Virus record (IMG/VR): IMGVR_UViG_2654587588_000004
Location: 1 to 8,838 of that record
From: a virus
Lineage: Duplodnaviria > Heunggongvirae > Uroviricota > Caudoviricetes
Length of the DNA: 8,838 bases
Direction: 5' to 3' (one strand)
Position numbers: made by a program. Positions 1 through 3,000 of this stretch are shown here, one piece after another (the first letter of the stretch is position 1; each line of letters opens with the position of its first letter).

Positions 1-3000
1 GAAGTCGCTGTCGTTTTCAAAATCGGTGGAGCTGCATGACAAAGTCATCGGGCATTATCTGAACATAAAACACTATCAATAAGTTGGAGTCATTACCGAC
101 TTTCTGACCAATTTTCTGAAATGTGTTCTCCGAATTTGGGCAAATAGAAAAAGGCCATTTCCATTCAGGGTCTGATGGAAATACTTCAGCCTGTTCCAAA
201 GCACGGCGTAAAGAGAACACAACTCCAGCCATAATCTGATGTTTCTCATTGGTCCAGCTATCGCCGCTCTGATCTACAGGGGCGGCTATGTCGTATGACC
301 AAACGACTTCACAGTTATTGTTTAAAATCTGGACTTTCATTTCATACACCTGCTTTAACATGAGTGCCTAGTGGCACAACATGACTCAACGAATCATCCT
401 GGACTTCATATGCCCCAGGCGGCTACTTCGTGGGCGTCCTGCCTGTTCGTTGTTTCGCTTGGGTACATTATGTATCTCAAAGGTACATTGTCAAGTATAA
501 AAAAACCTGCCGAAGCAGGTTCATAAACATTGATTAGGCTTTGATTTTGTATCTTCTTGGTTTTCCTGAGAAAATCACTGTACCAATTATAGAGCAATTA
601 CCGTTGATCTTAATGTAAGGCTCAGGCCAGTTTGGGTTTAACGCTTTGAGATAACGCTGTGTCCCATCTTCTATCAACCTTTTGAAGGTGGTTTCACCTG
701 TATCGTGCATCAATGCAATAACGTCGTCACCGTGGCAGGCAGGTACTTCAGGATCGACAAAAATCATGTCTCCCGGGCGGTACTCATCAATCATTGAATC
801 ACCTATCACCCGCAAGATATAAGTCATTTCCCCACAGGGTACAGGGCAGGGATACGTTTCTGCTGTGCTCAAATCAACCTCAGAATATCCAACTTCTTTC
901 CATGCTCCGGCCTGTACCCATGATATGACAGGGACTAATGTGATTTGTTTATTAGTGATTGAAACATCAGGTTTTTTTGTGATGTTCGTTGTCTGGTGTT
1001 CTTGATCGAGCCATCCGACAGGCAGGTCGAAACATTTTTCGATGTGTCGTGCCATGCTGTCACCGATATTTTTAGTAGCACCATCTCCCATAAACCTGCT
1101 GGTCTGGGTTGGCTCGCGATCAATCATAGTGGCAAAGGAAGAATTCCCGCCAACACCATCTCTCAGTTTTCTGGCGTTAGACCGCCGGATGTCATGGATT
1201 GTTTTCATAACGAAATTAAAACCCTTGTACCGTTAAGGTACAAGTATCTTGAAGGTTCATTTCAATCATGTAATATGTACACCGGAGGTACATATTGTAT
1301 GAAAGCGTATTGGGACTCTTTAACCAAAGAACAGCAGGGCGAGTTGGCCGGAAAAGTTGGCTCAACACCTGGCTACTTACGGCTGGTTTTCAATGGCTAT
1401 AAAAAAGCCAGTTTTGTGCTGGCTAAAAAACTTGAGCAATGCACGTCAGGTGCAATTACGAAATCTGACTTAAGACCGGATATCTATCCGAAAGATTAGC
1501 AGAACACTTTCATTTTTTAACCACAGAACGATGAGGCTAATTGTGGGTAAGCATCACTGGAAAATAGAAAAACAGCCTGAGTGGTACGTGAAAGCTGTCA
1601 GAAAAACTATCGCGGCGTTGCCGGGTGGTTACGCTGAAGCGGCTGACTGGCTCGATGTAACAGAAAACGCTTTATTCAACCGCCTTCGTGCAGATGGCGA
1701 TCAGATTTTCCCGCTGGGATGGGCAATGGTTTTACAGCGTGCTGGTGGCACTCACTTCATTGCTGATGCTGTGGCGCAGTCTGCAAATGGCGTCTTTGTG
1801 TCTCTTCCTGACGTCGAGGATGTGGACAACGCCGATATTAACCAGCGTCTGCTGGAAGTCATTGAACAGATCGGCAGTTATTCAAAACAGATTCGTTCAG
1901 CAATCGAAGACGGTGTAGTGGAACCGCATGAGAAGACAGCAATTAACGACGAGCTGTATCTCTCAATTTCGAAGCTGCAGGAGCATGCAGCACTTGTCTA
2001 CAAAATTTTTTGCATTTCAGAAAGTAATGACGCCCGCGAGTGTGCAGCTCCGGGCGTCGTGGCGTCGATTGCTTCTGGTTGTGGAGAAACTAACGCATGA
2101 ACAGTTTAACAACACACTACCGTCGCTCGCAACTGATTGCGCTTCCTGTTCCGGGTGGAAAAGCGAAGGTGGAATATTGCTATGCAGTGAATGTACCAGG
2201 TGACAGGGAAATTGTAACCCACAGCTTTGCAGAGTGGGCTGTGGGTGATTTCAACCGGCAGAAGGAGACAGTCCTTTGCGACAAGTTAACCGCTGGTTCA
2301 AAGATCACTACGGAGTGCCCGTCAGAGTCATTCGTTGGGAGTCGGAAACACAACGTGTTATCTACCTCCGCGAAGGCTATGAGCATGAGTGCTTCAGCCC
2401 GCTCGAACAGTTTCGTCGTAAATTCAGGGAAATAGAGGTCGGTCATGAGCACTAAATTAACCGGCTATGTATGGGATGGTTGCGCTGCATCAGGCATGAA
2501 ATTATCCAGCGTGGCAATTATGGCCCGCCTGGCTGATTTCAGTAATGACGAAGGTGTGTGCTGGCCATCAATTGAAACCATTGCCCGTCAGATTGGCGCG
2601 GGGATGAGTACCGTCAGAACGGCTATCGCACGGCTGGAAGCAGAAGGCTGGTTAACGCGTAAGGCGCGTCGCCAGGGTAACCGCAATGCGTCGAATGTTT
2701 ATCAGCTTAACGTTGCGAAGCTTCAGGCAGCGGCATTTTCTCAACTGTCAGATTCTGACCCGTCAAAATCTGACGCATCAAAATCTGACCCGTCAAAATT
2801 TGATGCGTCGAAATCAGGCAAAAAAGCGGGTTTTCACCCGTCAGAATCTGGCGGGGATCCGTCAGTAAAATCAAAACATGATCCGTCAGATAAAAAACCT
2901 TCTCGTCCGGACGCTTCGCAACCGGACACGCAGACGGCTGAACAGGATTTTTTAACTCGCCATCCTGATGCGGTTGTATTCAGCCCTAAAAAGCGCCAGT

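Follow-up and report, generated by a model that had tools for sequence, protein, structure and literature searches.

Two reading frames between ymfL and the replication gene

The DNA analyzed here (the window) is a stretch of 8,838 nucleotides, positions 1 to 8,838 of the IMG/VR record IMGVR_UViG_2654587588_000004 (Caudoviricetes). It comes from an e14-type lambdoid prophage of Escherichia coli, of which it represents the immunity and early-right region. Its genes are arranged in the order cI-like repressor, cro-like gene, cII-like ymfL, ymfM/DUF4222 region, and O-like replication gene. This study concerns the ymfM/DUF4222 region, in which two open reading frames (ORFs) share the same DNA out of frame. 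Table 1 lists the features of the locus.

The first of the two ORFs is ymfM. Its ATG overlaps the TGA of ymfL (2098-2100) as ATGA (2097-2100), and the ORF ends at the TAG at 2433-2435. In E. coli K-12 the ORF occupies the same position after ymfL and also encodes 112 amino acids, and among relatives an ORF of 112 to 117 amino acids is retained down to 46% identity. PHROG 1170 matches YmfM over residues 1 to 112 (E = 4.6e-70), while no match to the 112-residue protein was found among the Pfam and NCBIfam models.

The alignment of 19 YmfM homologues contains 23 invariant columns, every one of which lies in residues 1 to 61, with zero beyond. The protein can thus be divided into an N-terminal domain (N-domain) of about 58 residues and a tail of about 52 residues. 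The last 52 residues hold 12 Ser, and the initial annotation was correct in describing the C-terminal half as Ser rich and of low complexity. The AlphaFold2 model of YmfM has a predicted local distance difference test (pLDDT) score of 47.6 overall, too poor for a fold search, and of 30 to 44 in the tail, which is predicted to be disordered. The N-domain is also found as stand-alone genes of 59 to 65 amino acids in Providencia phage PSTRCR_117lys, Hafnia phage yong2, and Citrobacter phage phiNP. The N-terminal half of the window YmfM matches PHROG 20047 (63 amino acids) as well. This family at first resembled a short form of YmfM, a reading that was set aside. The 63-amino-acid database proteins that have the YmfM N terminus (P0063, P0068, and P0077) look like 1-nt-deletion variants of YmfM.

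The second ORF lies in the -1 frame relative to ymfM. This frame is closed by the TGA at 2246-2248 and is then open from 2249 to the TAA at 2453-2455, with TTG 2276 as its first possible start codon. The 59-amino-acid product matches the DUF4222 profile PF13973 with 67.6 bits (cutoff, 27; E = 7e-19) over profile positions 3 to 52 of 53, and it also matches PHROG 1343. Judged by these profile matches, the second frame is far beyond chance.

A database search returned 113 homologues of the DUF4222 protein, mostly stand-alone proteins of about 59 to 70 amino acids, with sizes of up to 80 amino acids in the loci that were fetched. In every lineage, the gene has its own ATG, GTG, or TTG start, which in the more distant lineages is an ATG or GTG at the homologous position, and many of the relatives listed have a purine-rich, Shine-Dalgarno (SD)-like run 5' of the start, as judged by eye. 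DUF4222 also occurs without the YmfM N-domain in many phages. Since the N-domain is found alone and DUF4222 is found alone, the two are independent modules.

The AlphaFold2 model of the DUF4222 protein (pLDDT, 84.9) shows a small four-stranded beta-barrel with a short helix. When this model was searched against the folds in the PDB, only generic SH3/KOW/Tudor-like barrels were returned (best E = 0.05), with no specific functional lead. In a predicted RNA fold of positions 2261-2278, the SD bases GAAGGA pair with UCCUUU (6 bp with a 5-nt loop), a run that takes in the initial two bases of the TTG start. The predicted fold of positions 2235-2310, calculated for the window sequence only, is not unusually stable (z = -0.98). 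If the SD hairpin is real, translation of ymfM could unmask the DUF4222 start.

Table 1. Features of the ymfM/DUF4222 locus and its neighbors in the window
Feature	Positions	Strand	Evidence or remark
LexA/cI-like repressor	534-1208	minus	
ymfL, cII-like (Phage_CP76) regulator	1531-2100	plus	Pfam PF06892, E = 1.3e-13; NCBIfam phage_reg_YmfL, 169.8 bits
ymfM ORF, 112 amino acids	2097-2435	plus	K-12 b1148; PHROG 1170
YmfM N-domain, about 58 amino acids, ending near WAVGDF	2097-2275	plus	Amino acid constraint in the ymfM frame
SD sequence AAGGAG for DUF4222	2262-2267	plus	8-nt spacer to TTG 2276
DUF4222 gene, 59 amino acids, TTG start, -1 frame relative to ymfM	2276-2455	plus	Pfam PF13973
Out-of-frame overlap, 160 nt	2276-2435	plus	Amino acids constrained in the DUF4222 frame; ymfM frame only kept open (comparative sequence evidence)
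ymfM stop codon TAG	2433-2435	plus	Rare Ile codon ATA of DUF4222 plus G of its next codon
SD-like GAGG (2435-2438) and ATG (2445-2447) of the O-like gene	2435-2447	plus	Sequence
O-like replication initiator (HTH_36)	2445-3386	plus	Pfam PF13730

All the coordinates reported in the initial annotation hold (ATG ORF at 2097-2435, -1 frame open at 2249-2455, and AAGGAG 8 nt before TTG 2276), and the Pfam and NCBIfam matches in Table 1 agree with its reading of the context, namely, a cII-like gene upstream, a replication gene downstream, and ATGA coupling. The two genes have independent start signals: the ymfM ATG lies on the ATGA, and DUF4222 has its own SD sequence and TTG.

Annotation of the two genes

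In the K-12 reference, ymfM is annotated as b1148, "cell division inhibitor YmfM," and nothing is annotated in the DUF4222 frame. The RefSeq Prokaryotic Genome Annotation Pipeline (PGAP) shows the opposite pattern in other E. coli genomes, a second MG1655 assembly among them: ymfM is omitted, and the ORF that is called, as "DUF4222 domain-containing protein," is precisely the one starting at the TTG. Some phage records call ymfM, and others call the small gene. Both ORFs are already known but have never been annotated together. The idea of an unannotated 59-amino-acid TTG gene was thus right in that a real DUF4222 gene is missing from the K-12 reference, but PGAP already annotates it elsewhere. 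The K-12 reference is left without a conserved, foldable gene, the RefSeq pipeline is left without the experimentally studied ymfM, and the overlap is recorded in neither. A literature search found no paper pairing ymfM with "overlapping gene" or "ribosome profiling," proteomic data being outside that search.

A 90-amino-acid ORF also runs antisense over the DUF4222 gene (2180-2452, minus strand). Its counterpart in phage vB_EcoS-733R5 (L005, 1335-1622) is an annotated coding sequence in a record in which ymfM and DUF4222 are uncalled, and this coding sequence is probably a mis-annotation.

Absence of a conserved frameshift between the two frames

The initial annotation had considered a -1 frameshift, either programmed or due to a sequencing indel near 2250-2280. 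Such a shift would join the N-domain to DUF4222 in a product of about 119 amino acids. A few proteins of this kind exist in the databases (P0030, P0052, P0059, and P0065; 102 to 119 amino acids), and DUF4222 lies in the -1 frame wherever it is adjacent to the N-domain, in every lineage. However, the fusion proteins are rare, their junctions are scattered, and most of them come from single contigs, as would be expected from assembly errors or occasional indels. ATGA-type stop/start overlaps produce a -1 offset and so account for the constant -1 relation.

In all 85 close relatives examined, the arrangement is the same: a 112-amino-acid ORF, a TTG start, and an unfused ORF of 59 amino acids. No slippery heptamer of the X_XXY_YYZ type was found near the junction in the window or in 34 of 40 relatives, and the heptamers in the remaining 6 differ in sequence or position. 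The local fold, as noted above, is not unusual. A frameshift would also leave a further 52 open ymfM codons unexplained, whereas DUF4222 has its own start and SD sequence and stands alone in many phages. A frameshift or sequencing indel was therefore rejected, and we regard it as extremely improbable. Both frames, on the other hand, are very probably real and maintained by selection, a conclusion which draws on the comparisons described below.

Amino acid selection in the overlap

We analyzed the positions of polymorphisms among the E. coli sequences. Upstream of 2276, 13 of the 22 polymorphisms are at position 3 of the ymfM codons. In the overlap, 10 of 13 are at position 3 of the DUF4222 codons and none (0/13) are at position 2, and all 10 of the polymorphisms at DUF4222 position 3 alter a YmfM residue. 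Between genera, the same DNA has 65 to 90% identity when it is read as DUF4222 and 38 to 56% identity when it is read as the YmfM tail. The initial annotation had left open which of the two frames is conserved; in the overlap, amino acid conservation follows the DUF4222 frame.

All four codons are in use at the fourfold sites, and the composition of the tail tracks the wobble base of DUF4222, being Ser/Thr rich in E. coli and hydrophobic in Providencia. The mean identity of the tail is 0.44, compared with the 0.36 predicted from DUF4222 conservation and free synonymous choice, an excess that can be explained by ancestry still shared at synonymous sites. Taken at the level of sequence, the comparisons show that amino acids in the overlap are selected in the DUF4222 frame only.

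Codon choice and the open ymfM frame

The sample of loci with DUF4222 consisted of 13 from phages and 30 diverse ones from chromosomes, the latter with a single genome for each species. We found that in 41 of the 43 genes (33 to 97% identity; Escherichia, Klebsiella, Citrobacter, Enterobacter, Kosakonia, Atlantibacter, Buttiauxella, Raoultella, Silvania, Pantoea, Providencia, Hafnia, Yersinia, and Salmonella), the ymfM frame is free of stop codons over DUF4222 codons 1 to 50. The third frame closes quickly in all the sampled loci and is never open.

As a null, each DUF4222 protein was recoded with synonymous codons, using the codon usage of the flanking genes. Under this null, the probability that the ymfM frame is open is 0.006 to 0.20 per sequence. 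The sequences were clustered by average linkage on synonymous identity, single linkage having merged all of them. Synonymous sites are saturated between distant lineages (identical-codon fraction of 0.35 to 0.38 versus 0.40 expected), and for 10 representatives of the clusters at or near saturation, the product of the null probabilities is 9e-12.

A stop codon in the ymfM frame requires xTA before A or G, or xTG before A, in the DUF4222 codons. When we counted the Val, Leu, and Ile codons ending in A or G, we found 0 of 139 before a codon starting with A, compared with 68 of 183 before a codon starting with C or T (Fisher P = 4e-20). The same test with one representative per cluster, including a closed-frame locus, gave a P value of 0.003. 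At Val16, GTA or GTG is found only if the next codon begins with C, and at Ile19, ATA is found only before CGN. Since fourfold sites elsewhere use all the codons, the pattern reflects avoidance of stops and not a general synonymous constraint.

In DUF4222 genes without an upstream ORF reading into them, the ymfM frame carries stop codons, as in RgdR (7 stops), phiNP, and Elizabethkingia EKP1. It follows that the protein family as such does not account for the open frame. The explanation that the frame is open by composition was rejected on three grounds: the synonymous-recoding null, the behavior of the third frame, and the DUF4222 genes in other contexts. Within the sampled loci, the codon statistics show that codon choice in DUF4222 is restricted in a way that keeps the ymfM frame free of stops until one fixed position, 9 nt 5' of the ATG of the replication gene.

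These data also bear on whether only DUF4222 is functional in the overlap, in which case the ymfM product would be the N-domain of about 60 amino acids, and its 52-codon extension would be unselected read-through. The tail has no Pfam match, is of low complexity, lacks conserved residues, and is predicted to be disordered, PGAP omits ymfM, and functional-looking stand-alone N-domains exist. Nevertheless, unselected read-through is improbable, given a frame that is open in 41 of 43 genes against null probabilities of mostly 3 to 20% each, the lack of stop-creating codons (0/139 against 68/183), the ymfM-frame stops in DUF4222 genes elsewhere, and a stop position that is conserved through rare codons. 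Of the possibilities raised in the initial annotation, the overlapping gene pair is thus the one that the evidence favors, with the qualification that the ymfM tail appears to be kept as an open frame with a fixed stop and not as an amino acid sequence.

Position of the ymfM stop and a possible translational relay

The TAG of ymfM adjoins the GAGG of the O-like gene, which is itself 6 nt 5' of ATG 2445, and the gap between the TAG and this ATG is 9 nt. The junction TAG/TAA-AGG...ATGAGC is conserved in relatives. Across the alignment, the DUF4222 codons in the stop column are almost exclusively rare codons ending in A (ATA in 15, TTA in 10, GTA in 3, and CTA in 1).

We then considered the 32 loci in which the ymfM frame ends near the end of DUF4222. 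The distance from the ymfM-frame stop to the start of the next long ORF is 3 to 9 nt in 30 of them and exactly 9 nt in 24, and the gene that follows DUF4222 is a replication gene in 30 of the 32. The spacing holds over at least five unrelated N termini of the replication gene (MSTKLTGYVW, MSLLMPSRP, MNTLIQLLDRP, MSRIFDIVQ, and MSLLLKVKP/MSCLLLLKTRP). The position of the DUF4222 stop, by comparison, varies from 38 nt before the next start to 79 nt after it. In the window, the first 11 nt of the O-like gene overlap the end of DUF4222.

A mechanism can be proposed from these features. Translation of ymfM would begin on the ATGA shared with ymfL and produce the N-domain of about 58 amino acids, followed by the tail of about 52 amino acids that is predicted to be disordered. 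DUF4222 would be translated independently from its own, weaker TTG start. What appears to be selected in the tail would be uninterrupted translation ending at the ribosome-binding site of the replication gene, and not the tail peptide. Translational coupling could thereby be relayed from ymfL to ymfM to O, passing over the nested gene. Support for the relay comes from PSTRCR_117lys and yong2, which lack DUF4222 at this place and in which an ATGA links the N-domain ORF straight to the next gene. We infer that such a relay would be the most economical mechanism, and we give it about an even chance of being the reason for the open tail.

Layouts in relatives and the role of the tail

In the relatives, at least four different N-terminal modules, each with an MNS(L/V) start on the ATGA with ymfL, read into the ymfM frame. 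Providencia has the frame in two parts, with the N-domain ORF joined through TGATG or ATGA to a separate ORF of 55 to 58 amino acids, which spans DUF4222 and stops 4 to 5 nt 5' of the replication gene. This ORF (1487-1663 in L117 and L118, 1493-1660 in L119, and 1487-1654 in L125) has an ATG start and a hydrophobic N-terminal stretch of about 20 residues, e.g., MKTQIILIGCIWISAVFVFVSYVM. Its product may be a small membrane peptide, or the ORF may arise only as a side effect of wobble positions rich in T.

The frame connects the N-domain to a Phage_ASH (Ash) domain directly after the overlap in SfV (orf37), ST64B (sb41), and a Citrobacter braakii prophage, and in the latter two it extends past Ash into Rha. 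The Hafnia frame also leads into Ash but is open only from the DUF4222 start onward. The composite genes are at 1352-2188 of L121 (SfV orf37), at 1358-2515 of L120 (ST64B sb41), in L116, and, for Hafnia, from 2496 of L008. Those of SfV, ST64B, and L116 are annotated as "transcriptional regulator," "Sb41," and "Ash family," respectively, and the DUF4222 gene within them is unannotated.

These composites fit better with the main alternative to the relay, in which the nested pair is real and the tail is open for a reason at the protein level, as a disordered C-terminal extension that tolerates sequence change, for example, a linker, a protease-recognition tail limiting the lifetime of a division inhibitor, or a spacer. 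In SfV, ST64B, and C. braakii, the frame forms the linker between the N-domain and Ash, and the Hafnia frame, which opens near the DUF4222 start, leads into Ash. The predicted disorder of the tail and its identity of 0.44, slightly above the null of 0.36, point in the same direction. The control of SulA and other division inhibitors through proteolysis could also be counted in favor of a protease-recognition tail. However, the composition of the tail merely follows the DUF4222 wobble base, stand-alone N-domain proteins of 59 to 65 amino acids exist without a tail, and the Providencia tail is a separate ORF. A protein-level role would also leave unexplained the 9-nt stop spacing, which is found whatever the next gene is. 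Although it is the main alternative, we consider a protein-level role of the tail unlikely.

Several points weigh against the relay and the codon statistics behind it. DUF4222 ends 8 nt past the O ATG and could itself couple to the replication gene, so that the relay is not strictly needed. The loci in which the ymfM frame runs into Ash or Rha have no stop near a start. The slight excess of tail identity over the null may reflect a weak constraint at the peptide level. The chromosomal loci were retrieved with one conserved peptide pattern and thus represent one large DUF4222 subfamily. The null probability of an open frame is fairly high, about 0.2, for Yersinia YeP2 and Hafnia, and the correction of the codon-choice statistics for shared ancestry is crude. 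With these points included, we lean toward the view that ymfM and DUF4222 are a genuine pair of nested genes in different frames, located in the early rightward operon, and that the ymfM tail would act as a translational relay.

Comparison with known systems

Embedded out-of-frame genes are known in phages, such as lambda Rz/Rz1 and the B-in-A and E-in-D genes of phiX174, in which both products are constrained in sequence. The ymfM/DUF4222 pair resembles them in that the inner gene has a start of its own and is read in a different frame from the gene that contains it, and both are kept across relatives. It differs in that the overlapped part of the outer gene seems to be selected here only for openness and the position of its stop.

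Translational coupling through the proximity of stop and start codons (ATGA, TGATG, and termination-reinitiation) is common ground in phage and bacterial operons. The likeness at this locus is the ATGA between ymfL and ymfM and the ymfM stop 9 nt before the next ATG, adjoining the SD-like sequence. The difference is that the putative coupling ORF here crosses a whole independent gene in another frame.

The only characterized DUF4222 protein that we found, RgdR (ECs1581) of prophage Sp7/OI-51 of enterohemorrhagic E. coli O157:H7, a protein of 99 amino acids, activates LEE1 and type III secretion and represses motility (PMC3378721; PMC10877973). It shows weak, nonspecific DNA binding (PMC3378721; PMC10877973), and its RGD motif was reported to be important for activation of the type III secretion system (PMC3378721). 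RgdR has the DUF4222 domain (82 bits) and 41% identity to the window protein over 49 amino acids (E = 3e-11), and we consider the two proteins to be paralogues. Like the window gene, rgdR is a small gene immediately 5' of a replication gene (a primase gene) and overlaps it. In O157 Sakai, rgdR (ECs_1581; 23305-23604 in L129) overlaps the primase gene ECs_1582 by 4 nt.

On the other hand, RgdR has N- and C-terminal extensions and the RGD motif, and the 59-amino-acid protein of the window has neither. The rgdR gene also belongs to a P4-like element and not to a lambdoid prophage as here, no upstream ORF runs across it, and its alternative frame contains the 7 stops mentioned above.

Surroundings and distribution of the locus

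In related phages, the counterpart of the O-like gene is labeled "replication protein O" or "primosomal protein." Within the O-like gene of the window, at 2754-2815, a 15-bp unit, TCTGACCCGTCAAAA, is present in four tandem copies that encode a DPSKSD-type repeat. By analogy with the lambda ori, these repeats look like origin iterons inside an initiator gene.

The region at 2050-2500 has 98 to 99.8% identity to many E. coli chromosomes (98.7 to 98.9% to K-12) and was found in 2,651 of 5,426 complete E. coli genomes, about half, with K-12 included. It was also found in temperate phages, e.g., SfII, SfIV, and PhiR49. Many of the E. coli and phage matches start at about 2080 or stop at about 2450 (query positions 31-451 or 1-401), which indicates that ymfM and DUF4222 move as one mosaic module. 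One putative exchange point lies just 5' of the ATG of ymfM, and the other is the conserved ...AGG...ATGAGC sequence that leads into the replication gene.

In e14 of K-12 (compared in L002, 2971-4263, and L128, 3171-4538), DUF4222 is followed by a truncated replication gene that has become joined to a terminase fragment (ymfN = oweE + aaaE). The window has an intact replication gene (313 amino acids) and additional PerC-like, methyltransferase, LexA-like, and RusA genes, and it therefore represents a more complete relative of e14. An Rfam scan of the whole window gave no match, a promoter scan of 1200-3500 found none, and the terminator-like hairpins within the ymfM/DUF4222 region are short and unconvincing.

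Implications for ymfM and related prophages

Expression of the ymfM/SfiC ORF cloned into pBAD24 led to complete filamentation, and a ymfM deletion was also used (Ansari et al., bioRxiv 10.1101/2020.11.19.390815). YmfM of K-12 was reported to inhibit formation of the FtsZ ring (bioRxiv 10.1101/2020.11.19.390815). The e14 ymfM of K-12 has the same 112 amino acids, with ymfL upstream and the replication gene downstream, and in the published work ymfM is regarded as one gene.

With its ends deduced from the text of the paper, the ymfM-ORF insert would hold the DUF4222 SD sequence, the TTG, and 53 of the 59 codons, that is, the whole Pfam domain. The published ymfM deletion and the earlier library clones span both genes. 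Since all the published ymfM/SfiC constructs and deletions affect both genes, the assignment of division inhibition needs to be retested. Two single-base changes would separate the products. T2276C is silent in ymfM (CTT to CTC) and removes the DUF4222 start (TTG to CTG), and T2287A is silent in DUF4222 (GTT to GTA) and truncates YmfM by creating a TAA in ymfM.

If the tail is selected as proposed, the locus would be a clean natural case of a frame that is selected for being translated and for the position of its stop, and not for the sequence that it encodes. Gene finders and tests for overlapping genes based on the ratio of nonsynonymous to synonymous substitution rates (dN/dS) would miss such a case.

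A more speculative possibility, toward which we remain skeptical, is that the SOS-associated division block comes wholly or partly from the nested, so far unrecognized DUF4222 protein, as a small RgdR-like regulator, and not from the 112-residue product that is annotated, and, at the same time, that the ymfM tail is a "translate-through" element which sets the expression of the replication gene. If this is true, the translate-through role would span a large family of enterobacterial prophages.

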